Positions 646 through 49,715 of a stretch of 64,000 nt of DNA are shown here, piece after piece. The notes below the pieces were generated by a model, which did no database searches, was not told the DNA's origin, and worked only from the letters and a program-made list of their open reading frames with translations. This DNA is from Candidatus Gastranaerophilales bacterium (GTDB lineage Bacteria; Cyanobacteriota; Vampirovibrionia; Gastranaerophilales; Gastranaerophilaceae), in NCBI GenBank assembly GCA_900767135.1, contig CAAFYU010000005.1:18371-82370 (forward strand). The letters are read 5' to 3'. Numbering within the stretch: the stretch's first letter is position 1; every line of letters begins with the position of its first letter. A program made the position numbers and the translations under genes.

Positions 646-1278
646 CTATACCTCATTATATGTTTTGAAATGCGTTTTACAAACTTCTTTCAAGCGGTCT
701 TTACCATACTTTCCAATGAACTCTGCCGCAACATTTTTAACCAACCCTGAACAGCCTTTTTGAAATTTCAATCCATAATTGTCTTCCATAGCCTGCATTT
801 TTTCAACAAAAGTAGCACGAGCTAAAACAGACGCTGCTGCAACCGCAATGTCACTTTCAGCCTTACACATCTGCTCCAAACGAATAGTTCTGCCATTTTT
901 CATTAACGCTGATTCAATTAAACTTTCATCACCAAATTTGTCCGAAAGTGCGTATTCACAGCGATTTTTCTCCAAAATATTTTCAATAACTCTTGCATGC
1001 CCCCATGCCAGAAGCTTATTCAGGTTTTTAATATTTGCGTAAAGCTCGTTATATTTAGAATTTGAAATTGCAATAATCGAATGTGGTGCAGTTTTTTTTA
1101 TTTCGCCGGCAAGCATTAACATTTTTTTATCAGAAAGCTTTTTGCTGTCTTTAATCCCGAGTTCCTTAAAGTATTCAGCGGCTTTTTCGTCTGCTAAAAC
1201 CCCTGCAATTACCAAAGGCCCAAAGAAATCGCCCTTCCCTGACTCATCTGTTCCAATATGTGCAATAAATTCTGTCAT
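646..1278 (-). CDS. rnhB: Ribonuclease HII
   Basis: 210 aa. N-terminal IGTDESGKGDFFGPLVIAGV is the typical RNase HII catalytic motif (DESG/RG). Length fits the family. Confidence 0.9.
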   Translation of the reverse strand: MTEFIAHIGTDESGKGDFFGPLVIAGVLADEKAAEYFKELGIKDSKKLSDKKMLMLAGEIKKTAPHSIIAISNSKYNELYANIKNLNKLLAWGHARVIENILEKNRCEYALSDKFGDESLIESALMKNGRTIRLEQMCKAESDIAVAAASVLARATFVEKMQAMEDNYGLKFQKGCSGLVKNVAAEFIGKYGKDRLKEVCKTHFKTYNEV

Positions 1279-1317
1279 TTTGTCCTTTCGATTGTTTATA
1301 AAAAGAATAAGAAATAA

Positions 1318-1441
1318 GTGAATGGTGAATAGTGAGTAGTGAATTGTTCTTATAGATTAAAATTATTTTCCTGTATCATAGTCATATATAATTATATTTT
1401 TATTGATATGAACTACTCACTACTCACTATTCACCATTCAC
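1318..1441. repeat. Inverted-repeat element. Two ~26-nt arms built from tandem GTGARTR heptamers (GTGAATGGTGAATAGTGAGTAGTGAA and its reverse complement) flank a 72-nt AT-rich centre.
   Basis: Arm 1318-1343 is the exact reverse complement of 1419-1441, extending imperfectly toward 1416. Intergenic between rnhB and the PBP1A gene. Confidence 0.85.
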
Positions 1442-1480
1442 TACCAGCAAAATTCGGCTTCCCAGTTACCTAGCCACTTC

Positions 1481-3634
1481 TTACCTTACCCCTTCCGGCA
1501 CTGCCATCGGAATAGGCACAGGAGCTGCTGTATTTTGAGCTTTTGGCGCTGCAACCGGTTTTGAAGTTGCAGTTTGAGCTGGTTTTGGTTGAGTTTGTTC
1601 ATGCTCAATCTTTTTAACTGATTCCGGCAAAGTCGGTTCAGTTTCGTTCAAATCGATTTCCGCCTGCTCTTCAACTTTTGGCTTTGCAACAGGTGCACCT
1701 ATAACTTTGTTAGGATTAATAGCTCCGAACGGAATTAATTCAACTTGCGGATAATTAAATTCAGCTTTGCCGTAAGGTTCTGTTGCAACCTTCATAACGT
1801 CTTTCCAAATCAATGCCGGAACACTTCCACCTTGAATAGACTTGTTCATTACAGAGTTATCGTCATTTCCGACCCAAACACCTGTTACGATATTTGGAGT
1901 ATAGCCCATAAAATAAGCATCTTTGTTGTCATCGGTTGTTCCTGTTTTGCCAGCTGCCGGTTTTCCTATATTTGCAGCACGTCCGGTTCCATTTGAAATA
2001 ACTAATTTCATCATTGCAGTCATTTCAGCAGCTGTATTCATGCTTAGCTGATGAGTAATTTTGGTTTTTGGAGCTTTGTAAACAACTTTTCCGCGAGATG
2101 TTTCAACTCTTTCGATTGCATAAGGTTGAACGACATAACCTCCGTTTGCAAATGCTCCATAAGCTCTTGTAAATTCAAACAATTTTACGCCGTTTGAACC
2201 CAAAGCAATTGTGTAATCATATTCCAAAGGAGTTTCAATTCCCAGAATTCTTGCAGTTTGAATAACAGAGCGAATTCCAACTTCTTTAATTAATCTTGCG
2301 GCACATACGTTTGAAGAATACATCAAAGCAGTATAAACAGGAATTTTTCCTCTGTATTTTCCCGCATAGTTTCTTGGGGACCACTGCCCGATTGTCAAAG
2401 GTCTATCTTCTATCATATCATTTGGAGAAATTCCTTTTTCCATTGCTGCCGCATACACAATCGGTTTAAATGAAGATCCCGGTGGTCGCACTGCTTGCGT
2501 AACTCTATCATATTGGCTCTTCGTATAATCTTTTCCACCTGAGTAAACGAGGATTTTTCCGTCTATCGGGCTAAAAGAGAATACAGCAGCTTGGTTTTTA
2601 TCACCGCTCAATCCCCAACCTCTTAAATTACGCAAAATAGCTTCATTGGCTGCTTTTTGAGCTTTATAATCCAATGTCGTTACAACTTTATAACCGCCTT
2701 GTGAAATTTCTGTTTCATCAAAACCCAGTTTTTCCAATTCTTTCATTACATAGTCGCAAAAATAAGGAGCTTTATTGGTTGTATAGAATTGAGGAACTTT
2801 TGCTAAATGAACTTTTTCTTTTTTTGCGTTTTCATATTCTTCGGTCGTAATGTATCTCATTTTATACATTCTTGTTAAAACTTGATTACGACGTTGAACC
2901 GCCAAATCCATATTATTAAACGGGTTGTAAACAGAAGGTGCTTGTGGCAAACCGGCAATCAATGCAAGTTCTGCCAAATCACAATCTTTTAAATGTTTGT
3001 CAAAATATATTTGTGCGGCACCTTCAACTCCATAAGCACCAGCTCCAAGATAGACATTATTCATATACATTTCAAGAATTTGGTCTTTTGAAATAGTTTT
3101 TTCAATTCTTGCCGCAATAAATAATTCTTTTAATTTTCTATCAAAAGTTCTTTCATTGTTAAGGAATAAAACCCTTGCTAACTGTTGTGTAAGGGTACTT
3201 GCACCTTGGACAACATGACCTGCCAGTATGTTTTGAACCGTAGAACGAGCCAAGCCTGTTAAGTCATAGCCATGGTGACGATAAAAATTCTTGTCTTCCG
3301 TTGCAATTAGGGCTTTTTTCAAGTTGTCAGGAATGTCTTTTAAGTCAATTTTTTCATAAGTATATGCAGTAAAAGTTTTAATAATTTCACCGTCACCTGA
3401 ATAAATCTTAGTTACAATATTAGGTTTAAATTGTTCCAAATTATCAATAGGTGGTAACGACTGCAAATAAAGTTCCAAAGATGCGACACCCGCCAAGGCA
3501 CACGCACAACCAAGCATAAATACAAATTTTATAGTAGAAAAAAATCCGCCTTGTTTGCGTTTAGTTTTCTTGGAAATATTCGCTTTCGCCATTTCTTTGG
3601 CTGTATAATCTCTTTTTACGTAATATTTTGACAT
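1481..3634 (-). CDS. Class A penicillin-binding protein (PBP1A type), a bifunctional glycosyltransferase/transpeptidase
   Basis: 717 aa. N-terminal TM anchor. GT51 motifs (EDKNFYRHHGYD, STLTQQLAR). Transpeptidase SxxK (PGSSFKP) and KTGT motifs. Confidence 0.9.
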   Translation of the reverse strand: MSKYYVKRDYTAKEMAKANISKKTKRKQGGFFSTIKFVFMLGCACALAGVASLELYLQSLPPIDNLEQFKPNIVTKIYSGDGEIIKTFTAYTYEKIDLKDIPDNLKKALIATEDKNFYRHHGYDLTGLARSTVQNILAGHVVQGASTLTQQLARVLFLNNERTFDRKLKELFIAARIEKTISKDQILEMYMNNVYLGAGAYGVEGAAQIYFDKHLKDCDLAELALIAGLPQAPSVYNPFNNMDLAVQRRNQVLTRMYKMRYITTEEYENAKKEKVHLAKVPQFYTTNKAPYFCDYVMKELEKLGFDETEISQGGYKVVTTLDYKAQKAANEAILRNLRGWGLSGDKNQAAVFSFSPIDGKILVYSGGKDYTKSQYDRVTQAVRPPGSSFKPIVYAAAMEKGISPNDMIEDRPLTIGQWSPRNYAGKYRGKIPVYTALMYSSNVCAARLIKEVGIRSVIQTARILGIETPLEYDYTIALGSNGVKLFEFTRAYGAFANGGYVVQPYAIERVETSRGKVVYKAPKTKITHQLSMNTAAEMTAMMKLVISNGTGRAANIGKPAAGKTGTTDDNKDAYFMGYTPNIVTGVWVGNDDNSVMNKSIQGGSVPALIWKDVMKVATEPYGKAEFNYPQVELIPFGAINPNKVIGAPVAKPKVEEQAEIDLNETEPTLPESVKKIEHEQTQPKPAQTATSKPVAAPKAQNTAAPVPIPMAVPEGVR

Positions 3635-16969: not shown

Positions 16970-17015
16970 ACTTTACTTTTCAATCCATAAAGGGTGGTTG
17001 AAACAGCTACGTTCC

Positions 17016-17330
17016 TTACGAAGTCGTTAGCTTTTTAAATTCTACCAACACCTAATGGGTGGGTGGAGCGGCACTTTTTACGAAGTCGCTTATCTTTTAA
17101 ATCGCACCAACACCTAATGAGTGGGTGAAGCTTCAAGCTTCTTACGAAGTCGCTTATCTTTTAAATCGCACCGACACCTAATGAGTGGGTGAAGCTTCAA
17201 GCTTCTTACGAAGTCGTTGGCTTTTAAAATCGCACCAACACCCAAAGGGCGGGTGGAGCGGCACTTTTTACGAAGTCGCTTATCTTTTAAATCGCACCAA
17301 CACCTAATGGGTGGGTGAAGCTTCAAGCTT
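17016..17330. repeat. Tandem array of five ~62-64 bp units. Core: TTACGAAGTCGCTTATCTTTTAAATCGCACCAACACCTAATGRGTGGGTG. Two alternating 3' variants: ...GAGCGGCACTTT (A) and ...AAGCTTCAAGCTTC (B), in order A-B-B-A-B.
   Basis: Direct reading. Units start at 17016, 17078, 17142, 17206 and 17268. The array ends at the base before the ppdK stop codon (17331). Confidence 0.9.
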
Positions 17331-20009
17331 CTATTTGCAACCTAGTGGTAATGAGATGTCTTTGGATTGTTTGAACTCAATTACCGCTTGAGCTGCTGCA
17401 AGACGAGCTTGCGGAACTCTGAACGGAGAGCAAGAAACATAATTCAAGCCAATTCTGTGGCAGAATTTTACTGATGCCGGATCTCCACCATGTTCTCCAC
17501 AGATACCACGTTTAAGGTGAGGTCGAACTTTTAGAGCTTTGTCGAGTGCTATTTTCATTAATTGTCCAACACCTTCTTGGTCAAGTGTTGAGAATGGGTT
17601 AGCTGGAAGAATTTTTTGTTCTACATAGTTTTGTAGGAACTTGCCTTCCGCATCATCTCTTGAAAAGCCGAAAGTCATCTGAGTCAAGTCGTTTGTACCG
17701 AATGAGAAAAATTCTGCATATTCTGCAATTTGATCTGCTGTTAGGGCAGCACGAGGAATTTCAATCATTGTACCAAACATATAGTCGACTCTGACGTTCT
17801 TTTCGTCCATAACTTCATTTGCAACACGTTCTAGAACTTCTTTTACGGTTTTAAGTTCATTTACGTGCCCTACAAGTGGAATCATGATTTCAGGTTTAAC
17901 ATCTAAACCTTCTTTTTTCAAGTCGCAAGCTGCATAGAAGATTGCACGAACCTGCATTTCATTGATTTCCGGATAAGTAAGACCAAGACGACAACCTCTA
18001 AGTCCCATCATTGGGTTAGATTCAGACATTGCTTCGACGATGTTTAGAAGCTTTTCATCTTCTTTGTAATCTTCGCCTTTTGCTTTTTTAGTAGCAACTT
18101 TTGCGATAAGTTCTTCCTTATCAGGCAAGAATTCGTGAAGAGGTGGGTCAAGAAGTCTGATTGTCATTGATTTGTCGCCTAATGCTTTAAACATAGCGTG
18201 AAAATCACTGTATTGCATAGGGAGCAAGTGTTCTAGTGCTTCTTTTCGAGCTTCCGGAGTACCTGCAATAATCATTTTTTGAACCCAAGGAAGTCTTTCA
18301 GGATCCATAAACATGTGTTCTGTTCTGCAAAGTCCAACGCCTTCTGCACCAAGTTCCAGAGCTTTTGCAACGTCAGCCGGTGTATCAGCATTTGCACGAA
18401 CGCCTAACAATTTGATATCGTCAACCCATTCGAACAATTTTTTGAAATTGTCGTCCATTGTAGGCGGAACAAGATGAATTGCACCGTCCATAACTTCGCC
18501 AGTACCACCATCTAAGGAGATTACGTCGTTTTTGTGGTAAACAGTTCCGTCACCGGCTGTTAGAGTTTCATTTTTAAGATCAATTGAAAGGTCTTCGCAA
18601 CCTGCAACACAAGGTTTTCCCATACCTTTTGCAACAACGGCTGCGTGAGATGTCATTCCGCCACGAAGAGTTAAAACACCTTGTGACTCAATCATACCAT
18701 GGATATCGTCAGGGCAAGTTTCAATTCTTACCAAGATAACTTTTTCACCTGCTTTGCCTCGTTCTGCTGCTTCTTCGGTGTCAAAAACGATTTTACCTAC
18801 TGCTGCACCAGGGGAAGCTGCAAGACCTTGGGCTATTTTATGTGCTTCTTTTTTAGCTTTCGGGTCAAAGTCAGGAAGTAGTACTTGATATAGTTGATTT
18901 GCATCAACAAGTTCTACTGCTCTTTCTTTGTCTATAATGCCTTCTTCGCACATTTCAACGGCAATTCTGACTGATGCTTTTGCGGTTCTTTTTCCGTTAC
19001 GAGTTTGCAAAATCCACAATTTGCCTCTTTCGATTGTAAATTCCATATCTTGAACATCTTTGTAGCCTTTTTCAAGTTTTTTCGCGATGTCAACGTATTG
19101 CTTGTAAAGTTCAGGCATTTCGTGTTCAAGTTCTGCGATAGGTTTTGGAGTTCTGATACCTGCAACAACGTCTTCACCCTGAGCGTTGGTTAGATATTCC
19201 CCATAGAACTTGTTTTCGCCTGTTGACGGGTTTCTTGTGAAAGAAACACCTGTCGCACAATCGTCGCCCATGTTGCCGAATACCATTGTTTGAACGTTTA
19301 CGGCAGTTCCGTAATTATGGTCGATTTTGTAATGTTCTCTGTATGCAACGGCACGTGGAATATTCCATGAGCGGAATACGGCTTCAATTGATTCTTCAAG
19401 TTGAACGTACGGATCTTGCGGAAAATCTTTGCCTGTTTCTTTTTTGATTAAGTCTTTGTAAGGTTGAATTAAAGATTTCCAGTCGTCTGCTGTCAGGTCT
19501 GTATCTGATTTGTATCCTTTTTCTTCTTTAATTTTGTCTAGGTAGTCTTCAAATTTTTGTCTGTCGATTTCCCAAGCAACAGAGCCGAACATTGTCAAAA
19601 ATCTTCTATATGAGTCATAACAAAATCTCGGATTGTTTGTTAGCTTAATCATACCTTCAACAGTTTGGTCGTTTAAACCTAAGTTAAGGATAGTTTCCAT
19701 CATGCCTGGCATTGAAAGTCTTGCACCTGAACGAACAGAAACTAAAAGCGGGTTTTCAGCATCACCAAATTTTTTCCCTGCTTGTTTTTCAATAGTATGA
19801 AGAGCTTCTCTAACCTCGTCCATAAGCCCTATTGGCATTTTATTGCCATGGTTAATGTAATCCATACAGGTTTCTGTGGTAATCGTAAGCCCCGGTGGAA
19901 CTGGCAAACCTAAATTTGTCATCTCTGCAAGGTTAGCACCTTTGCCACCCAAAAGGTTACGCATATCTGCATTGCCTTCTTTGAACAACCATACACGTTT
20001 TGCACTCAT
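17331..20009 (-). CDS. ppdK: Pyruvate, phosphate dikinase
   Basis: 892 aa. PPDK N-terminus (LFKEGNADMRNLLGGKGANLAEM), phosphohistidine region (GGMTSHAAVVA), PEP-utilising C-terminal domain. Has a ~12 aa C-terminal extension (…KQSKDISLPLGCK). Confidence 0.95.
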   Translation of the reverse strand: MSAKRVWLFKEGNADMRNLLGGKGANLAEMTNLGLPVPPGLTITTETCMDYINHGNKMPIGLMDEVREALHTIEKQAGKKFGDAENPLLVSVRSGARLSMPGMMETILNLGLNDQTVEGMIKLTNNPRFCYDSYRRFLTMFGSVAWEIDRQKFEDYLDKIKEEKGYKSDTDLTADDWKSLIQPYKDLIKKETGKDFPQDPYVQLEESIEAVFRSWNIPRAVAYREHYKIDHNYGTAVNVQTMVFGNMGDDCATGVSFTRNPSTGENKFYGEYLTNAQGEDVVAGIRTPKPIAELEHEMPELYKQYVDIAKKLEKGYKDVQDMEFTIERGKLWILQTRNGKRTAKASVRIAVEMCEEGIIDKERAVELVDANQLYQVLLPDFDPKAKKEAHKIAQGLAASPGAAVGKIVFDTEEAAERGKAGEKVILVRIETCPDDIHGMIESQGVLTLRGGMTSHAAVVAKGMGKPCVAGCEDLSIDLKNETLTAGDGTVYHKNDVISLDGGTGEVMDGAIHLVPPTMDDNFKKLFEWVDDIKLLGVRANADTPADVAKALELGAEGVGLCRTEHMFMDPERLPWVQKMIIAGTPEARKEALEHLLPMQYSDFHAMFKALGDKSMTIRLLDPPLHEFLPDKEELIAKVATKKAKGEDYKEDEKLLNIVEAMSESNPMMGLRGCRLGLTYPEINEMQVRAIFYAACDLKKEGLDVKPEIMIPLVGHVNELKTVKEVLERVANEVMDEKNVRVDYMFGTMIEIPRAALTADQIAEYAEFFSFGTNDLTQMTFGFSRDDAEGKFLQNYVEQKILPANPFSTLDQEGVGQLMKIALDKALKVRPHLKRGICGEHGGDPASVKFCHRIGLNYVSCSPFRVPQARLAAAQAVIEFKQSKDISLPLGCK

Positions 20010-22023: not shown

Positions 22024-23217
22024 TTATTTTTTCAAGAAATCTGGAATTTCAATGTTTGTGAAGCTTGAAGAAACTTCCGGCATTGAACTTCTTCTTACTT
22101 GTTGCGATTGAGAAGACATTGCAGAATTTGCACCATTATTGAATGTTCCTGCAAAGAAGTCAGAAGCACTCAATTGCTTAGCACTTGTCTTTTCTTCCGG
22201 TTTTTGTTGGTTTTTCATTTCAAAACCGGTTGCAATAACAGTAATTTGGATTTCTCCTTGAATATTTTCGTTTACGGCAGTACCGATAATAACAGTTGCG
22301 TCGTCATTAACTGCATCATGGATAATATTTGCAGCATCTGAGATTTCGTGCAATGTCATATCAGGTCCACCTGTAATATTAACGATTACGCCAGTTGCTC
22401 CATTGATTGAAGATTCAAGCAATTGTGAATTGATAGCGATTTCAGCAGCTTTAACAGCTCTACCTTCACCTTGACCGCGACCAATACCCATCAATGCAGA
22501 GCCAGAAGCTTGCATTACACACTTAACATCAGCAAAGTCAACGTTGATAAGTCCAGGAACTGTGATGATATCAGAGATACCTTGAACACCTCTCAATAGA
22601 ACTTCGTCAACAATTACGAATGCTTCTGTCAAAGACACTTGTCTATCAACGACTTGCAACAATTTGTCGTTAGGAACAACAATAACAGCATCAACAGCTT
22701 CTCTAAGTTTTTCCAAACCTTGGTTAGCTTGATTTTGTCTTTTACGACCTTCCCAGCTGAAAGGTTTAGTAACAACTGCGATTGTCAAAATACCTAATTC
22801 CTTAGCGATTTTAGCAACAACCGGAGCAGCACCTGTTCCTGTTCCGCCACCCATACCGGCAGTGATAAATACCATATCAGCACCGTCAAGAGCTTCGGTG
22901 ATTTCTTGTTGAGCTTCTTCAGCAGCTTTTTCACCTACCGAAGGATCTCCGCCTGCACCAAGTCCTGATGTAGATTTAGAACCTAATTGAATTCTGTTCT
23001 TTGTTTGACCATATTCCAAAACCTGTAAATCTGTATTCATCAACCAGAATTCTACACCTGATAAACCGGCTTTAATCATTCGATTAACAGCATTTCCGCC
23101 GCCGCCACCTACACCAATAACTTTGATTTTAGTAGGGTTTACAGGAGGTCTTTGAGTTTGATCATTACTTGCTGAATTATCTTTTTTAGCAAAGATGTCT
23201 GATACGAAATTTTCCAC
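22024..23217 (-). CDS. ftsZ: Cell division GTPase FtsZ
   Basis: [13 protein letters not shown] tubulin signature, [13 protein letters not shown]-terminal variable tail. Confidence 0.95.
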
Positions 23218-23340
23218 TTTTTTTACCTCTTTATATAATTATAGTATTATCGACTTTATAATATACTAACATACTATTTTAAATAGAAAAAATGTACAAG
23301 AAAATTTGAATAATTATGAACAAAAATTAATAATTTTGAA

Positions 23341-23455
23341 GTGAGTGGTGAATTGTGAGTAGTGAGTAGTTCAAATAGCTCGCGTTGCTCGGAAGTAATT
23401 TCTAGTGCACTAGCACTTGTTATGCTCCATTCACTACTCACAATTCACCACTCAC
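23341..23455. repeat. Second copy of the GTGARTR-heptamer inverted-repeat element: 24-nt perfect arms with a 67-nt centre.
   Basis: 23341-23364 GTGAGTGGTGAATTGTGAGTAGTG is the reverse complement of 23432-23455. Lies between ftsZ and nadK, abutting the nadK stop. Confidence 0.85.
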
Positions 23456-24250
23456 TTATTTAGCATACGCCGGTGGCATTGCCCAATGGAGTTTGTTTTG
23501 TAAAATGGAGTAGAACTCAAAATTTCCTAAAAGGGCTAATTTCGCTGTATAAACAGATTTTTTTATTTCAATTTCATTGTCAAACTCAAAGAGTTCCTGT
23601 CCATCAGTAGAAAGCACATACTTTGATTTTTTATCAGTACAAACTGTAATTTTTTCACAATCCGGCACTACAATTGGTCTTGCAGTAAGCGTATGCGGAC
23701 AAATTGGAACAATTACAAAAGCATTTAACGACGGAGCCAAAACTGGCCCCCCTGCTGAAAGCCCGTAAGCCGTAGAGCCGGTCGGTGTTGAAACAATAAT
23801 TCCGTCCGCCAAATAATCACAAACAAATTTGTCATTAATCTTCAATGAAAAACTCGACGTCCTTCCAAAGTCACAACCCTTAATAACAAAATCATTCAGT
23901 GCCGTAAAATTTCCGCTTTCAAGCATTATTCTATCTTCAATAATATATTCATTTGCCAAAATTTTATCGACAGATTTTTCTATTTCCTCTTTTGAAGACT
24001 GAGAAAGAAACCCTAAACGTCCAAGATTTACCCCAAAAACGGGAGTTTTAAACTTTGCATAAAACCTAGCCGTCTTTAAAATCGTACCATCACCCCCGAT
24101 TACAAAGACGAAATCAAACCCTCCTTTAAGGTTATCAATATCTAATATTTGAGCTGTAACACCTTTTTGGGCAAGGATTTGAGCCAATTTATCCTTGATT
24201 TCTACCGAATGTAATATTTCCTGATTGTAGCAAATTGCAAAGTTTTTCAT
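23456..24250 (-). CDS. nadK: NAD(+) kinase
   Basis: GGDGTIL, NLGRLGFL and DGIIVSTPTGSTAYGLSAGGP motifs. Confidence 0.85.
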   Translation of the reverse strand: MKNFAICYNQEILHSVEIKDKLAQILAQKGVTAQILDIDNLKGGFDFVFVIGGDGTILKTARFYAKFKTPVFGVNLGRLGFLSQSSKEEIEKSVDKILANEYIIEDRIMLESGNFTALNDFVIKGCDFGRTSSFSLKINDKFVCDYLADGIIVSTPTGSTAYGLSAGGPVLAPSLNAFVIVPICPHTLTARPIVVPDCEKITVCTDKKSKYVLSTDGQELFEFDNEIEIKKSVYTAKLALLGNFEFYSILQNKLHWAMPPAYAK

Positions 24251-24558
24251 AACCTTGTTATAACATAAGTTCTTAATTTGAGCAAGATTATAGAAGCAAG
24301 CCAGAAACTCTTGTCATTCGTACCTTTTAAAAAAATGTTAAGTTTTGTTACTATAAAAAATCCCAAAAAAGCAATTCTCAACTCAAAAAAGTTTTTATAT
24401 TAGTACAAGGGGAAAATTAATCACTTTAATCTAACAATTAAGTATTTTGCAAATGACTTTGAATGATTGCAAACAGTTGAGTTTATTATTCAAAGACGTT
24501 GCGGAAGGCTAATTTCATCTTGGTAAAAATGTAAGAAAACGAGGAAAAGGGGAAAATT

Positions 24559-25854
24559 ATGAGTTTAGACGGAAAAATCAATTACAATTACGCAGGGTAT
24601 CAATTAAAATTTGATCCATCAAAAACAAGTTCAACAATTATGGACTTTAACACTCCAAAACCAAAAGTACAACAAGCAAAGTACACAAACACACAAATCG
24701 GAAATATTTGGGGACAACCGACAAGCAGGATATACACATCTAGTCAAAATGCAGCTCCTGTGTTTAGTCAATATACAACTCCGACTTTAAGTCAAAATGC
24801 AGCTCCAATATTCAACCAACAGCCAAAGGTATACACACCTGTTCAGAATACAGCACCTTTGTTTAGTCAATATACGACTCCTACATTAAGTCAAAATACG
24901 GCTCCGATATTCAATCAACCGACAAACACTCTTAATGTTCAGCCACCACTAACACAATCAACAAATCTCACATCAAATATACCGGCAAAACCACAGAATG
25001 CATATTCAGGTAGTTTACCACCAGTTAAGAATGGGGATATGTATGGCAAATTTTTAGCCCAAAATCCAGTTCCACAAGCTACACCAATTCAACTTATAGA
25101 TGAAAATAAAGCAGTAGCAGACAAACCTATTACAGGTGACACTGATGCCGGCAAACAAGCTAAACCTAAAAAAGTAAAAACAGCTGAACAACGTGCAGCA
25201 CAGTTAAGAAAAATCAGAAGCAACCCAAGAGCAAGATCTCTATATAAAAGATTAAAATTAAAAAACAATCCGGAACTTGCAAGCAGATATGAAAATTATT
25301 GCAAATCCGTAAAAAATTCTAACAAACTAAAAGGTTTGAAAAAAGCAGGTAAATGGGGTGCACTTGCAGCCTTGGCAATTGGTACAGTTGCAGTAGCAGT
25401 TCAAGCTTGCAAAGGCGACAAAAAAGACGACGCCGTAAAACCGGAAACAACACAACCGGTAGCAGACACACAAACTCCGGCAGAACCGGCAAAACCAGCA
25501 GAAGAAACTCCTGCAACACCAGCTCCGGCACCAACAGAGCCTGAAACTCCTGTCGAACAAACAAATCCGGTAGCACCTGTCGAAATAGGCGTTGGCGAAT
25601 TCAATGACGGCAAATATAAGGTTAAAAAAGGTGATACTTTCTGGAATATCGCAGAAAAAAATCTAATTGAAGAATACAAAAAAGCTCAAACTGCTAAAAA
25701 TGAAGCAATTGACGAAAATTACAAACCAACAGATGCAGAAATCTTGAAAGAAACTGAAAGATTAGTTGCGAAGAACAAATATGAATTTGACGAAAAACAT
25801 TGGAATACAACAAAACCGATTTATGAAGGCGACATCTTAAATATTGCAGCGTAA
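24559..25854 (+). CDS. Membrane-anchored protein with an N-terminal Q/N/T/P-rich repeat region, one TM helix, a Pro/Glu/Thr-rich linker and a C-terminal LysM-like peptidoglycan-binding domain
   Basis: Tandem ~30-aa repeats (YTTPTLSQNAAPIFNQ...). TM segment WGALAALAIGTVAVAV. C-terminal YKVKKGDTFWNIAEKNL...IYEGDILNI resembles LysM. Confidence 0.55.
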   Translation: MSLDGKINYNYAGYQLKFDPSKTSSTIMDFNTPKPKVQQAKYTNTQIGNIWGQPTSRIYTSSQNAAPVFSQYTTPTLSQNAAPIFNQQPKVYTPVQNTAPLFSQYTTPTLSQNTAPIFNQPTNTLNVQPPLTQSTNLTSNIPAKPQNAYSGSLPPVKNGDMYGKFLAQNPVPQATPIQLIDENKAVADKPITGDTDAGKQAKPKKVKTAEQRAAQLRKIRSNPRARSLYKRLKLKNNPELASRYENYCKSVKNSNKLKGLKKAGKWGALAALAIGTVAVAVQACKGDKKDDAVKPETTQPVADTQTPAEPAKPAEETPATPAPAPTEPETPVEQTNPVAPVEIGVGEFNDGKYKVKKGDTFWNIAEKNLIEEYKKAQTAKNEAIDENYKPTDAEILKETERLVAKNKYEFDEKHWNTTKPIYEGDILNIAA

Positions 25855-30826: not shown

Positions 30827-31768
30827 ATGACAAGATTAAAAAACTGGTCAATCTCTATTTTGTTATCAGGTGCAATGCTTTTAGGTTTGCAGTGTTACAG
30901 TAGCACATCAAGTTTAAAGTTCGCACAAGTCAGTGACACACATTTTTATACCGGAAGCAATAACACAACCTTCAAAATGGTTGCAGAATCACCAAAACTT
31001 CTTGACGATGTGATTGAGCAGATTAATGAAACCCCAAATGTTTCTTTCGTAATGTTTACGGGCGATTTAATTGACAAACCATTTGAAAAAGAGTTGAGTG
31101 CATTCCTTCCGCACACAGAAAAACTTAATTATCCTTGGTATTTTGCGTTCGGGAACCACGACACAATGTTTGGCGGATATTTGACTCCGAGGGTTTATAT
31201 GGACTTGGTAAACCAATATAACACCAACTACAAGTTTGAAAAATCATACTATTCATTTGTGCCACAAAAAGGTTACAAGGCAATAGTTTTGGACACAATT
31301 ATTCGTGACAGGTTAACATCAAACGGTCAAATCGGCGAAGAACAGCTAAAATGGCTTGACAACGAACTTGCAAATTCAAAAAAAGATACTGTTTTAATCT
31401 TTATGCACGTACCTGTTTTGGAGCCATACAACAGCCCAAATCACAGGCTTTTAGATGCTGACAAAATGCAAGAAATCCTTAATAAATATAAGCAACCGAT
31501 TGCGATATTTCAAGGACATTACCATGGTGCAAAAATTACTCAGCGAGATAATCTTCTGTATGTAAGTTGCCCATCTATGGTGTCATATCCAAACGCTTTC
31601 AGAATGATTACGGTGACAAATTACAGAAACAAGGTCGTATTTAATATTCAAAATAAGGAAACTAATTTGAAAAATGTACAAAAACTTGCAAAACTATTGG
31701 TCTTTGGAACAACTATTTACACAGGCGAAGCGAAAGATCAAAATGCAACAATAGTGATTAAAAAATAA
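30827..31768 (+). CDS. Secreted calcineurin-like metallophosphoesterase
   Basis: DTH, GDLID, GNHD and GHYH motifs. Signal peptide. Start at the ATG after AAGGAGAG; the track ORF starts upstream at 30776. Confidence 0.7.
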   Translation: MTRLKNWSISILLSGAMLLGLQCYSSTSSLKFAQVSDTHFYTGSNNTTFKMVAESPKLLDDVIEQINETPNVSFVMFTGDLIDKPFEKELSAFLPHTEKLNYPWYFAFGNHDTMFGGYLTPRVYMDLVNQYNTNYKFEKSYYSFVPQKGYKAIVLDTIIRDRLTSNGQIGEEQLKWLDNELANSKKDTVLIFMHVPVLEPYNSPNHRLLDADKMQEILNKYKQPIAIFQGHYHGAKITQRDNLLYVSCPSMVSYPNAFRMITVTNYRNKVVFNIQNKETNLKNVQKLAKLLVFGTTIYTGEAKDQNATIVIKK

Positions 31769-31797
31769 GAAGTTTAGTGCTAATGCATAGTTTATTA

Positions 31798-31851
31798 CCG
31801 AGCAAAGCGAGCGAAATGAACTTTTCACTATTCACGTCTCACTTTTCACTT
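31798..31851. repeat. Half element: CCGAGCAAAGCGAGCG module followed by four tandem TTCAC(N2-3) motifs; no partner arm.
   Basis: TTCACTATTCACGTCTCACTTTTCACTT at 31824-31851. The CCGAGCAA(A/C)GCGAGC motif recurs in reverse orientation inside the 23341-23455 element (about 23386-23400). Confidence 0.6.
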
Positions 31852-31871: not shown

Positions 31872-32801
31872 ATGGGCGAATTTAAAATAAAATTTAGAGG
31901 TGTAAGAGGCAGTTATCCTGTTGCCAACAGGGATTTCTTGCAATATGGCGGAAACACGTCTTGTGTTGAAGTCAATGTCAATGGACATTTGATTATTCTT
32001 GATGCAGGAACAGGCTTGATTAATGTTGGAAACGAGCTTATGGGCAAATATATTGCCTCTGGCGAAAACTCATCAGACAGAACGCCAATTCAAGCAACTG
32101 TGTTAATTTCACATATTCACCAAGACCACTTACAAGGGTTTACGTTCTTCCGTCCGCTTCATATTCCATCATCACAAATCAATGTTTATGGGAATGTAAA
32201 TTACAATGAAAGCTTGGCAGATGAACTTTCTGAACTTCTTTTTGGCAAGTCGTTTCCACTAGATTTAGGCGACATTGCGGGGAATTTGAACATAAAAGAT
32301 ATCAATGAAACCGAAGGAATTATCCTAAGACATGGAGAAGCACCTATTATCAAACGCATAGAAAATGAAAATGATGCAAAAGTTGAAGGTGACGATGTTA
32401 TGATTACTTGCTATCGTTCTTATGCACACCCACAAGAAGGTGTTTTGGTTTATAAAATAGCATATCAAGATAAAGTTTTGGTTTATGCAACGGATAAAGA
32501 AAGCTACCCCGGCGGAGATAAAAAACTTGTAAGCTTTGCTCGTGGGTGCGATTTACTAATCCATGACGCACAATACACAATGGAAGATTATCTTGATGCA
32601 TTTGTTCCAAAACAAGGTTACGGGCACTCAACTTTTGATATGGCAATTGAAGCTCAAAAACAAGCTAATGCCAAAAAAGTTGTTTTCTTCCACTTCGATC
32701 CAAGCTATGATGACAACAAATTAAATATCATTAAAGAACATTACAAAGACCTCGGAGAAAGTGCAATTCTTGCATACGAAGGGCTGGAAATAGAACTATA
32801 A
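31872..32801 (+). CDS. MBL-fold metallo-hydrolase
   Basis: HxHxDH motif (SHIHQDHLQGF) plus downstream His/Asp ligands. 309 aa. Confidence 0.75.
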   Translation: MGEFKIKFRGVRGSYPVANRDFLQYGGNTSCVEVNVNGHLIILDAGTGLINVGNELMGKYIASGENSSDRTPIQATVLISHIHQDHLQGFTFFRPLHIPSSQINVYGNVNYNESLADELSELLFGKSFPLDLGDIAGNLNIKDINETEGIILRHGEAPIIKRIENENDAKVEGDDVMITCYRSYAHPQEGVLVYKIAYQDKVLVYATDKESYPGGDKKLVSFARGCDLLIHDAQYTMEDYLDAFVPKQGYGHSTFDMAIEAQKQANAKKVVFFHFDPSYDDNKLNIIKEHYKDLGESAILAYEGLEIEL

Positions 32802-40330: not shown

Positions 40331-40465
40331 ATTTTAGCACGAAAACCATTTTACTAATAGCATCTGAATAACTTTTGTAAATTTTACCATTACACATCAT
40401 AATCAGTCGTCATTCTGAAAGCATAGAAAATTATTTTGAACGAGTAGTGAAAAAATAAGCTAATT

Positions 40466-43748: not shown

Positions 43749-44735
43749 ATGAAAACAGCAGTAATTAATGATGACAAAATCATAATAAGGCAAGCCGATG
43801 ATATCAAACTTGACGGTCGAAAAGGTGCTATCGTAAAAGTTTTAGGTTGTGGGCTTTGTGGATCTGATATCGTTAAGTTTGTACATAAAATTGCGAAAAA
43901 CGGAACGGTTTTGGGGCACGAAATTGTCGCTCAAATAGTTGATATAAATTCAGAAACCAATTTTAAAGTTGGTGATGAAATAGTTACATCACACCATATT
44001 CCTTGTGGAGAATGCATTTATTGTAAACATGGAAACGTTTCTATGTGTCAGCATTTCAAGTCAACAAATATTCGCCCGGGAGGATTTTCTGAGTTTGTTT
44101 ATTTAAGCGAAGAACATCTTCAAAATGTCGCACATATCAAACCTGAAAACTTGACTGATATTGAGGCATCTTTCTATGAACCGCTTGGGTGTATTGTTAG
44201 AGCAGTAAAAAGAGCGAATTTATTGGAAGGCGATGAGGCACTTGTTGTCGGATTGGGCTCAATCGGAATTTTGACAGCACAAGCACTAAAAGCTTACGGT
44301 GCAAAGGTTACAGGCTGTGATTTAATTCCTGAACGTGTTGAGTTCTTGAAATCGTTAGGAATAAATGCAGTTGATGTCAGAACTTTGTCAGAAGAACATA
44401 AATTTGACGGAATATTCATGACATCAGGTGCGGACAAGGCGATTGATACAGCTTTAAAATACGTTCGAAACGGAGGAAAAATCCTTGTATTTTCAAGCAC
44501 TCCGCACGACGAGTCGGCCTATCCAAACAACGAAATCTATTACAGAGAATTGACTGTAATGGGAAGTTATTCGCCGTCACCTGCGGATTTAAAGGATTCT
44601 TTGGAACTCTTGAAAACGAAAAAAGTCGTTGTTAAAGGACTTTCAACAGAATACAAACTTGACGACATTGAACAAGCCTTTGAGGACACAATGGCAAATC
44701 GGATTATGAAGGCGTATATCAGTGTGAGTAGCTAA
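43749..44735 (+). CDS. Zn-dependent medium-chain alcohol/polyol dehydrogenase (threonine/sorbitol dehydrogenase-like)
   Basis: GCGLCGSDI with GHE, structural-Zn Cys cluster (CGECIYCKHGNVSMC), GLGSIG Rossmann motif. Confidence 0.8.
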   Translation: MKTAVINDDKIIIRQADDIKLDGRKGAIVKVLGCGLCGSDIVKFVHKIAKNGTVLGHEIVAQIVDINSETNFKVGDEIVTSHHIPCGECIYCKHGNVSMCQHFKSTNIRPGGFSEFVYLSEEHLQNVAHIKPENLTDIEASFYEPLGCIVRAVKRANLLEGDEALVVGLGSIGILTAQALKAYGAKVTGCDLIPERVEFLKSLGINAVDVRTLSEEHKFDGIFMTSGADKAIDTALKYVRNGGKILVFSSTPHDESAYPNNEIYYRELTVMGSYSPSPADLKDSLELLKTKKVVVKGLSTEYKLDDIEQAFEDTMANRIMKAYISVSS

Positions 44736-44924
44736 GCAGGTCGGAAGCTTGCTAAATTGCAGCGAAGTGAATAAGTGAATAAGAAAATAGGTGAATAGGT
44801 TCTTATCGCTCACTTTGTTCGAAATAATATAAAGCTTCTATATTCAAAATCTTTCTACGAGTATGAAAATCGCTTTTTGAAATGAACTTATTCACTAATT
44901 CACTTATTTTCTTATTCACTTACA
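44736..44924. repeat. Composite intergenic element: a GCTAAGC-rich module (44736-44766), then GTGAATA heptamer array (44768-44800), 87-nt centre, inverted TTATTCAC array (44888-44924).
   Basis: Direct reading. Arms are imperfect; about 19 nt match exactly. Lies between the two Zn-ADH genes and starts at the stop codon of the first. Confidence 0.75.
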
Positions 44925-44963: not shown

Positions 44964-46007
44964 ATGAAAGCAATACAATATTACGGACCACAAAATATTA
45001 AATATGAAGAAGTTATGGTAAAACCGCCACAAGAAGGCGAAGTTGTCGTAAAAGTCATGTCAGCTTTGACTTGCGGAACTGATGTTAAGACATTCAGACG
45101 CGGGCACCCTGTCTTGATTAAATCAGTGCCGTCGGGCTTCGGGCACGAGTTTGCAGGGATTGTTGAAAAAGTCGGCAAAGGTGTTGAGAATGTTAAAGTT
45201 GGCGACAGAGTTGTTGCGGCGAATTCTGCACCTTGCGGAAAATGTTTTTATTGCAGACATGAAGAGTTCAATTTGTGCGAGAATTTAGACTTATTGAACG
45301 GAGCTTATGCTGAATATATCACAGTTCCGGCACGTATTGTTGAAAAAAATATGCTTATTTTGCCGGATAATTTAAGTTTTGATAAAGCCGCATTTTGCGA
45401 ACCTTTGGCAAATGTAGTTCATGGTGTTGAAAGGACAGGGATTAAAGCAGGGCAAACTGTTGGTATTATTGGGATTGGCCCTATTGGTTTGATGTTTGCA
45501 AGACTTGCAAAATTGAAAGGTGCAAATGTTATTGTTGCCGGAAGAAATCCAATAAAATTAAAGGCAGCAGAAGATTTTGCACACGCCGATGAAATCGTTG
45601 ATTTGACAAGATATCCAAATCCTGAAAAGATTTTTAGAGAGTTTACGGAAGAACACAAAGGGCTTGATGTTGCAGTGGAATGCGTTGGGTTGCCTGAGAT
45701 TTGGGAAAGAATATTCTCTTGTGTTCGCCCTGGTGGGACTGTTCACTTCTTTGGCGGGTGCAAATCAGGTTCTACCGTAACTTTTGACACAACAAAAATG
45801 CATTACGGCGACATCAAATTGATGAGCGTGTTCCACCATACGCCAAAATATTTCAGAATGGCGTTGGATTACATTGCATCAGGCGATGTTGAGGTGGAAA
45901 AACTTATCACAGATACCTTGCCTTTGAATAAGGTTGAATGGGCTATGCACCAACATATTGAGGGCAAAGCGATTAAGTTTTTGATTAAGCCACAAATGAA
46001 AGATTAG
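44964..46007 (+). CDS. Zn-dependent medium-chain alcohol/polyol dehydrogenase (second paralog)
   Basis: CGTDV...GHEFAG, CGKCFYCRHEEFNLC, GIGPIG motifs. Confidence 0.8.
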   Translation: MKAIQYYGPQNIKYEEVMVKPPQEGEVVVKVMSALTCGTDVKTFRRGHPVLIKSVPSGFGHEFAGIVEKVGKGVENVKVGDRVVAANSAPCGKCFYCRHEEFNLCENLDLLNGAYAEYITVPARIVEKNMLILPDNLSFDKAAFCEPLANVVHGVERTGIKAGQTVGIIGIGPIGLMFARLAKLKGANVIVAGRNPIKLKAAEDFAHADEIVDLTRYPNPEKIFREFTEEHKGLDVAVECVGLPEIWERIFSCVRPGGTVHFFGGCKSGSTVTFDTTKMHYGDIKLMSVFHHTPKYFRMALDYIASGDVEVEKLITDTLPLNKVEWAMHQHIEGKAIKFLIKPQMKD

Positions 46008-49638: not shown

Positions 49639-49715
49639 TGGTCGGGACGACAAGATTCGAACTTGCGACCCCCGCGACCCGAACACGGTGCGCTACCAGG
49701 CTGCGCTACGTCCCG
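49639..49715 (-). tRNA. tRNA-Pro (anticodon CGG)
   Basis: Manually folded cloverleaf. Acceptor CGGGACG/CGTCCCG, D-arm GCGC/GCGC, anticodon stem CCGTG/CGCGG with loop TTCGGGT, T-arm GCAAG-TTCGAAT-CTTGT, discriminator A plus encoded CCA. Confidence 0.85.

Follow-up and report, generated by a model that had tools for sequence, protein, structure and literature searches.

Tandem-repeat hairpin cassettes in operon spacers of a Gastranaerophilales bacterium and their likeness to PF05635-carrying elements

The DNA considered here, a stretch of 64,000 nt on contig CAAFYU010000005.1 of a Candidatus Gastranaerophilales bacterium (hereafter the window; G+C 0.35), carries an intergenic hairpin element in four copies, all of which sit between co-directional protein-coding genes. 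Copy 1 separates the genes for a class A penicillin-binding protein (PBP1A) and RNase HII, copy 2 those for NAD kinase (nadK) and FtsZ, and copy 3 two genes of the zinc alcohol-dehydrogenase family (Table 1). Copy 4 occupies the spacer between a stop at 31768 and a start at 31872, where a metallophosphoesterase-type gene is followed by a metallo-beta-lactamase-fold gene. In gene orientation, copy 2 begins at the nadK stop codon TAA (23456-23458), with a two-base overlap. On the reading that we prefer, to which a probability of about 0.6 is given, these are three complete copies and one one-armed copy of a cassette that lacks an open reading frame (ORF), resembles the intervening sequences (IVS) of 23S rRNA, resides in operon spacers and would be cut by RNase III. 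That the element belongs to a broad, barely described family of hairpin cassettes is highly probable in view of the comparisons set out below.

The three longest inverted repeats of the window, at 1317-1442, 23339-23457 and 44765-44922, are copies 1 to 3. Their arms are tandem units beginning AAGTGA, either (GTGARTN)4 or 8-mers, mirrored by their own reverse complement; about half of the window units read TGAAT rather than TGAGT. Allowing at most one mismatch, GTGARTRGTGARTR matches the window 13 times, against 0.2 matches expected from shuffles. An earlier note, drawn up from the DNA letters, had described the mirrored heptamer arms of copy 1, and these were found as described: the left arm at 1318-1345 reads GTGAATG GTGAATA GTGAGTA GTGAATT, and its reverse complement lies at 1414-1441. 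The note had also seen the same architecture at two further sites. The inverted repeats at both are real, but copy 3 is built of 8-mers, and the fourth copy, in which the 5' arm is missing and the C-rich arm alone is present, had been overlooked. Another ~40 kb of the window species contains three further complete copies and several one-armed ones, so that the density is about one copy per 13 kb over ~105 kb.

As a separate observation on the arms, every reading frame is closed by a stop codon in the G-rich arm, and none is in the C-rich arm (1318-1345, 23341-23368, 44765-44800 and their partners); because the element is symmetric, translation arriving from either side would be halted at once. 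The idea that the arms exist to close all reading frames was rejected as a general explanation, as only 27% of the wider family has this property, compared with 10% of shuffles.

The centres enclosed by the arms are not unrelated, as the earlier note had supposed in taking the arms alone to be conserved. A 14-nt core, CGARCAAMGYGAGC, adjoins one arm in copies 2, 3 and 4 (23378-23391, 44808-44821 and 31799-31812), and the inner ends GTTC...GAAC are common to all window copies. Relative to the genes, copies 2 and 4 have the core in sense orientation, and copy 3 has it in antisense. The extra copies in the ~40 kb of the window species have centres with a small hairpin, GGTGC-N4-GCACC, and a GAGCGAAGCGAAC-like core in either orientation. 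When the window centres were compared by BLAST with all fetched loci, only short matches were returned (E 0.002 to 0.5). Apart from these copies, two phage-like contigs of high G+C, L207 and L226, match the core in the form ACTTCCGAGCAA(A/C)GCGAG (window 23378-23395, 31796-31811) at 17 of 18 nt; there the match falls immediately beyond a heptamer hairpin and belongs to the 5' leader of an unrelated gene. A core-related motif, TCCCGAGCGNAGCGAGGGA, recurs in other loci (L107, L237).

Table 1. Positions in the window of the hairpin copies, their parts and the genes beside them.
Feature	Position	Strand	Description
Copy 1 G-rich arm	1317..1345	.	A + GTGAATG GTGAATA GTGAGTA GTGAATT
Copy 1 centre	1346..1413	.	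68 nt, AT-rich, inner ends GTTC...GAAC; opposite orientation in six other strains
Copy 1 C-rich arm	1414..1442	.	TACTCAC TACTCAC TATTCAC CATTCAC + T; one 7-nt unit fewer in other strains
Copy 2 arm	23339..23368	+	AA + GTGAGTG GTGAATT GTGAGTA GTGAGTA
Copy 2 centre	23369..23427	-	Small hairpin AGTGCTAGTGCACT and core CCGAGCAACGCGAGC (23378-23391, - strand), reading in the same sense as nadK and ftsZ
Copy 2 second arm	23428..23457	.	
Copy 3 G-rich arm	44765..44800	.	8-mers: AAGTGAAT AAGTGAAT AAGAAAAT AGGTGAAT AGG
Copy 3 centre	44801..44885	-	Core CGAACAAAGTGAGC (44808-44821, - strand), antisense to its neighbour genes on the + strand
Copy 3 C-rich arm	44886..44922	.	Period 8
Copy 4, one-armed	31769..31851	+	Small hairpin-like module, core CCGAGCAAAGCGAG (31798-31811), GAAC, then TTTTCAC TATTCAC GTCTCAC TTTTCAC
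RNase HII gene	646..1278	-	Downstream of copy 1; PF01351
PBP1A gene (class A penicillin-binding protein)	1481..3634	-	Upstream of copy 1; PF00912 and PF00905
nadK (NAD kinase gene)	23456..24250	-	Upstream of copy 2
ftsZ	22024..23217	-	Downstream of copy 2
Zinc alcohol-dehydrogenase-family gene	43749..44735	+	Upstream of copy 3
Second zinc alcohol-dehydrogenase-family gene	44964..46007	+	Downstream of copy 3

Folded as RNA, copy 1 gives a helix of 26 consecutive pairs, in keeping with the long perfect stem that the earlier note had foreseen, and copy 2 one of 29, while the helix of copy 3 is interrupted. For copies 1 and 2 the folding z-scores fall between -8 and -10, and for copy 3 between -4 and -5. 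By analogy with IVS stems, it is plausible that stems of such length and regularity would suit RNase III. Among the orthologues of copy 2, stem pairing is kept, with three compensatory double changes; one-sided changes on the sense strand comprise at least seven G-U cells versus three A-C cells, and uncompensated stem changes are also present at this site. Neither the elements in the window nor those of eight related loci matched Rfam 15 at the gathering score, and permissive searches returned sub-threshold matches to generic long hairpins (miRNA precursors) alone. Across the window, Rfam found no rRNA and no intron family, the sole tRNA being tRNA-Pro at 49639-49715.

Hairpins in such positions invite the explanation that they are intergenic transcription terminators or attenuators. 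The elements do lie downstream of stop codons, and a U-rich tract follows copy 1 in gene orientation. However, an intrinsic terminator has a short G+C-rich stem, a small loop and a U tract, whereas these stems are AT-rich and very long and enclose large centres. Scans around the three complete copies found no terminator-like site, copy 2 stands upstream of the essential gene ftsZ, and the stems of a phage-like contig described below are followed by A-rich ribosome-binding regions. We consider this explanation most improbable. The earlier note had itself favoured a structured, dispersed element, comparable to a miniature inverted-repeat transposable element (MITE) or a repetitive extragenic palindrome (REP), over a simple terminator; that choice has held up, as the element is polymorphic among strains and occurs in many phyla and no canonical terminator was found.

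A search for such arrays beyond the window, which the earlier note had recommended, was made by scanning for (GTGARTN)3GTGA in one genome per species, and viral contigs were scanned separately. At least 120 loci were found in the genomes, and viral contigs also carry such arrays. Among the matches listed, the groups represented include Bacteroidota, Acidobacteriota, Gemmatimonadota, Cyanobacteria, Gastranaerophilales, Armatimonadota, Planctomycetota, Chloroflexota and several proteobacterial classes. Many of the loci have the mirrored layout, and its polarity is fixed: among the matches listed, an inverted partner (score >=12) lies at most 450 nt downstream of 41% of genome arrays and 44% of viral arrays and upstream of 0%, and a further count gave 34 partners downstream versus two upstream. 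Centres mostly measure 10-80 nt, many family members having loops of only 10-20 nt; some reach 100-320 nt, and a group of genome loci has centres of 370-400 nt. One phage-like contig (L146/L210; G+C ~0.32) bears about eight short-loop GTGARTN hairpins, which stand 0-3 nt after stop codons and 20-50 nt before the next start; A-rich ribosome-binding regions come after them instead of U tracts. In other phyla, a spacer often contains several different heptamer arrays side by side.

This distribution bears on the suggestion, also made in the earlier note, that the arrays are DNA-binding sites of the iteron or transcription-factor type. Tandem short units in inverted sets do resemble operators and iterons. 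The elements are nevertheless found inside operons, in many cases with only 0-3 nt between them and the preceding stop codon, and they occur in many phyla, in chromosomes as well as phage-like contigs; their unit sequence varies freely within the cassette family, and sister strains dispense with them. We find a binding-site array scarcely credible, and the suggestion is best set aside.

Some of the larger centres encode a protein. The 370-400-nt centres of L031 (Mesorhizobium) and of L058 (a rumen Gastranaerophilales metagenome-assembled genome, MAG) encode PF05635, the 23S rRNA IVS protein, and the ORF adjoining the array of L070 is likewise PF05635; the three matches have E values of 1e-28 to 1e-34. 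PF05635 is a four-helix bundle for which no transposase activity is known; its homologue in diversity-generating retroelements is the Avd protein (PMC10053308). To approach the association from the side of the protein, PF05635 genes were drawn from metagenomes independently of any DNA pattern, as 80 loci that best matched an L058-like query, of which 74 were usable. An inverted repeat (score >=14) brackets 42 of these 74 genes and none of 108 shifted controls. When mismatches were penalised slightly less, 47 cassettes qualified, and the properties of their arms were analysed. Of these, 36 have arms of period 7, ten of period 8 and one of period 11, and in 41 of the 47 the 5' arm contains more G than C. 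Units are diverse (CGTGAGG, AGTACCC, AGTGATA, AGTGGTC, AGGATTC and others), and two cassettes found through the protein, L328 and L274, have AGTGAAT arms. The window copies share these family traits, i.e., a period of 7 or 8 and a polarity from G-rich to C-rich. A human-gut PF05635 cassette of G+C 0.34 (L268) has 8-mer arms, and the inner ends GTTCATATCAA... and ...GCGAAC are common to it, window copy 1 and L359; this short likeness is only suggestive.

Within the PF05635 cassette L334, CCGAGCAACGCG lies inside the ORF, and L296 has an 18-nt near-match. These matches would fit a 14-nt core that is a remnant of PF05635 coding sequence, a candidate idea against which the core in the leader of an unrelated gene in L207 and L226 speaks. 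In the literature searched, inverted heptamer arrays were nowhere stated to be a general flank of PF05635 genes, and GTGARTN hairpins were not described outside Nostocales.

The nearest known relatives of the window copies are the IVS of 23S rRNA and the heptamer stem of a Nostoc intron, although the copies lie in neither of these locations. The IVS of Leptospira, Coxiella, Brucella and Xanthomonas have complementary termini and a stem of ~28 bp, as the window copies do (Ralph and McClelland, 1993; Warrier et al., 2016, PMC4990558). Their distribution is sporadic and parasitic-looking, which is also true of the window element, and their S23p/PF05635 ORF is also encountered between GTGARTN arms in relatives of that element. 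For example, the IVS of Coxiella burnetii is described as a selfish element with an S23p ORF; RNase III cuts its terminal stem of 28 bp, which contains tandem heptamers, GACAGAT, in numbers that vary between strains (PMC4990558). Unlike IVS, which replace the loop of helix 9, 25 or 45, the window copies are located between protein-coding genes, and unlike the large IVS they have no PF05635 ORF. RNase III excision has been demonstrated for IVS; for the window copies it would follow from this resemblance.

The second relative is the tRNA-Leu(UAA) intron's P6b stem-loop in Nostoc and Calothrix. P6b always consists of TDNGATT or NNTGAGT heptamers, the latter being the class II heptanucleotide repeat (Costa et al., 2002, as cited in PMC4476775); one or both of its sides can gain or lose whole units, and whole regions are replaced (PMC4476775). 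NNTGAGT is the window unit rotated by one base (N-GTGAGT), and both systems have stems of mirrored degenerate heptamers that change length by whole 7-nt units. Nostoc also belongs, in a broad sense, to the same phylum as Gastranaerophilales. P6b is part of a self-splicing group I intron, which the window copies are not, and the copies carry extra centre modules.

Three further kinds of element share features with the window copies. Direct TAACTGA heptamer arrays occur in Beggiatoaceae, Cyanobacteria and Bacteroidetes with no known mechanism, and the BOGUAY genome has 169 direct sets of heptamer repeats versus one indirect set (PMC4679880). Such direct repeats, including the short tandemly repeated repetitive (STRR) sequences, long simple sequence repeats and TAACTGA (Mrazek, 2007; MacGregor, 2015, PMC4679880), are intergenic and have a period of 7, as in the window; they often lie just upstream of start codons and are patchily distributed in Cyanobacteria, Bacteroidota and Proteobacteria. 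They differ in their unit and in forming direct arrays, almost never inverted pairs. MITEs and REPINs are small, non-coding, hairpin-forming, intergenic, dispersed and strain-polymorphic, like the window copies (Bertels and Rainey, 2011, PMC3116915). In contrast to REP and REPIN, which rest on an imperfect palindrome of 20-40 bp, the window copies have no GTAG/CGTC tag, and no transposase or RAYT partner was identified, RAYT not having been searched for genome-wide. In phage T7, long stems stand between co-directional genes, as do the GTGARTN hairpins of the phage-like contig. The intercistronic RNase III hairpins of T7 mRNA are unique sequences with internal loops, not stems of tandem units, and do not form a dispersed family across hosts. 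Small dispersed repeats are reportedly present in Nostoc as well, as Elhai and colleagues are said to have described in 2008.

The earlier note had also proposed comparing related strains for presence or absence of the element, and copies 1 and 2 proved polymorphic among ten assemblies each. The copy 1 site was compared with the window in ten assemblies with identical RNase HII. Two are like the window. Six have the centre inverted and the innermost unit flipped and have lost one 7-nt unit (TATTCAC) from one arm; the inverted centre (L131-type) is identical to the reverse complement at 66 of 68 positions versus 44 of 68 in direct comparison. The remaining two (L138, L140) have a different, longer spacer carrying other repeats. 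Copy 2 is present, in one orientation, in nine of ten assemblies with identical NAD kinase, and in the tenth (L010) the flanks are identical but enclose 47 nt of unrelated sequence instead. This 47-nt replacement holds an 8-mer array of its own, TACTAAAT TACTAAGA CACTAAGG. Because the arms are shorter than assembler k-mers and each state recurs in independent assemblies, these are taken to be real differences between lineages.

Between species, the orthologous nadK-ftsZ spacer contains copy 2 at NadK identities of 92% and 85% and lacks it at 82%, 76% and 73%. The ftsZ upstream region was kept in all species compared; its 120 nt are conserved across species, but copy 2 is not. At 73% NadK identity, the spacer (L354 2289-2559) has two GTCATTGCGAGG...GCAATC-type units instead of the heptamer element. 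Further turnover at a fixed site was noticed in the spacer between the genes for biotin carboxylase and biotin carboxyl carrier protein of the window species, where one strain has a short complete GTGAAAA hairpin and another a one-armed core copy (L355 15650-15760 vs L356 14780-14880).

An inverted centre raises the prospect of an inverton, in which a recombinase flips the centre between the arms and so switches expression of the downstream gene. The copy 1 centre does occur in both orientations among strains, albeit between lineages only. Each orientation is fixed within its lineage, together with a single-nucleotide polymorphism and the unit deletion, and copy 2 has the same orientation in nine strains. 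Scans detected no promoter-like site in the centres of copies 1 and 3, loops of 10-20 nt are the rule in many family members, and no recombinase was linked to the elements, an invertase not having been searched for. We judge a switch of this kind very improbable.

A classical DNA-transposon MITE, whose transposase would bind the subterminal heptamer arrays, is another candidate that presence/absence polymorphism brings to mind. Like a MITE, the element has terminal inverted repeats and dispersed copies that share internal sequence, their inner ends included. Unlike MITEs, the window copies show no target-site duplication, and their arms are tandem arrays instead of a unique inverted repeat. 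Moreover, empty sites are replacements and not clean excisions, PF05635 is the only ORF found inside full-size relatives, and arm sequence varies freely among related cassettes. A transposon of the classical type is very unlikely.

The whole-unit changes have a bearing on a further account, by which the repeats are made in situ, in spacers that evolve fast, through local slipped-strand synthesis and through template switching at hairpins, with no mobility at all; the link with PF05635 would then reflect a shared spacer habitat. Gains and losses of whole units (copy 1; PMC4476775, PMC4990558) fit this account, as do the other 8-mer arrays held by the replacing alleles of L010, L138 and L140, the multiple heptamer arrays side by side in spacers of other phyla, and the missing target-site duplications. 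It is at odds with the core and inner ends common to copies at unrelated sites, with a GTGARTN unit of the same polarity across phyla and viral contigs, and with the association with PF05635 (42/74 vs 0/108). We regard in situ growth as unlikely.

Returning to the reading as an IVS-like cassette, the following mechanism is proposed. The cassette consists of a G-rich 5' arm of three to five 7- or 8-nt units, a short centre with conserved modules and a C-rich 3' arm. As the same architecture is found around many PF05635 genes of other bacteria and in the stems of 23S rRNA IVS, the window copies are read as putative non-coding derivatives of the PF05635 cassette type. They would be co-transcribed in operon mRNA, and the 26-29-bp helices of copies 1 and 2 may be cut by RNase III like IVS stems, which could uncouple or stabilise the neighbouring cistrons. 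At the DNA level, the copies may be tolerated selfish insertions that are gained, replaced or lost at a site. Arms would gain or lose whole units by slippage, tandem units permitting re-pairing in shifted registers, and recombination between arms could flip the centre and, in addition, preserve the similarity of the arms. Copy 2 and the hairpins of the phage-like contig directly follow stop codons, which hints at either a preferred site or strong filtering. For RNase III processing of the window copies, and likewise for their derivation from PF05635 cassettes, we see the chances as evenly balanced.

Several observations weigh against this reading. Inspection by eye found no target-site duplication at any copy or in filled and empty alleles, and there is no clean empty site, element-free strains carrying unrelated sequence instead. 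The step of RNase III processing is drawn from the likeness of the window copies to IVS. Since the PF05635 loci were chosen by a query, they may represent one subfamily only. Among the matches listed, a PF05635 ORF lies in or beside the array in three of 120 GTGARTN loci, and ~55-60% of arrays have no detectable inverted partner. A local HMM search of ~105 kb of the window species (the window and ~40 kb adjacent) found no PF05635 gene, and the best local alignment of the window centres with ORF-bearing cassettes scores 32 (BLAST E ~0.3). Sense-strand folds are not consistently more stable than antisense ones, and the data argue weakly for pairing at the RNA level, with G-U versus A-C at 56 versus 42 by site (p = 0.19) and 24 versus 9 by locus.

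A more far-reaching extension can be formulated, which we hold to be doubtful and, as it stands, unlikely. The hairpins of 7-/8-nt arrays would be the ends of an unrecognised, pan-bacterial and phage-borne class of mobile cassettes, whose only protein would be a pentameric, Avd-like PF05635 four-helix bundle that recognises ~4-5 tandem units per arm. Copies with and without the ORF would spread via RNase III-excised RNA and a reverse transcriptase or by another route, the window copies being non-autonomous. If this were true, much of the unexplained heptamer repeat content of bacteria would be the footprint of this class.

Other repeats were observed in the same spacers and elsewhere in the window. 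Downstream of the RNase HII gene, positions 560-645 contain C-rich 8-mer arrays, CCTTAGTG CCTTAGTA ACCTAGTA ..., followed by GCTTAGCTGC repeats; these have no partner arm in the window, and similar arrays are mirrored in L138 and L140. A repeat family of ~70 nt with the ends TTCTGAA...TTCAGAA is found at 486-556 and 40409-40454 (reverse strand), with a 97% identical copy in a Gastranaerophilales MAG locus (L077, 1935-2002) and further copies in the spacer that replaces copy 1 in L138 and L140. L077 also has a nucleotide match of 72% over 295 nt with the window; this match, the repeat in common and array matches in four Gastranaerophilales MAGs agree with a Gastranaerophilales origin of the window. 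A 64-nt unit is repeated five times in tandem (83% alike) at 17015-17332, beyond the stop codon of the gene for pyruvate phosphate dikinase (17331-20009, - strand), and has no Rfam match; gene tables of L001, L002 and L006 indicate a difference of ~64 nt in the length of this spacer between strains, from which the number of units appears variable. Within the ORF at 24559-25854, a repetitive segment rich in Q, T and P is encoded by two copies of a 99-nt tandem repeat (24731-24926) that are 83% alike and contain 24-nt sub-repeats. Finally, upstream of nadK (the window side above 24250), L001-L010 have either a gyrA/tetratricopeptide-repeat block or a block of glycine-cleavage and type II secretion ATPase genes; two such gene contents beside an identical NAD kinase imply a rearrangement or replacement boundary near 24300-24560.

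Cyanobacteria, Bacteroidota, Beggiatoaceae and other groups have for decades been known to contain tandem heptamer repeats, for which no mechanism has been given, and we know of no function for the PF05635 family outside diversity-generating retroelements. Here, heptamer and octamer arrays are found as mirrored pairs of fixed polarity that bracket over half of the sampled PF05635 genes, and versions without the ORF occur frequently in the operon spacers of a Gastranaerophilales-like bacterium, probably from the human gut, as well as in phage-like contigs. Together, these three features yield a testable hypothesis, namely an RNase III-cut hairpin cassette with an Avd-like partner, and PF05635-carrying elements of the same kind may help to explain the origin of bacterial heptamer repeats. 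For the host, such elements would put long double-stranded RNA inside essential operons, as in PBP1A-rnhB and nadK-ftsZ. Because they flip and change length between strains, they should be useful as strain markers and are possible modulators of operon expression.

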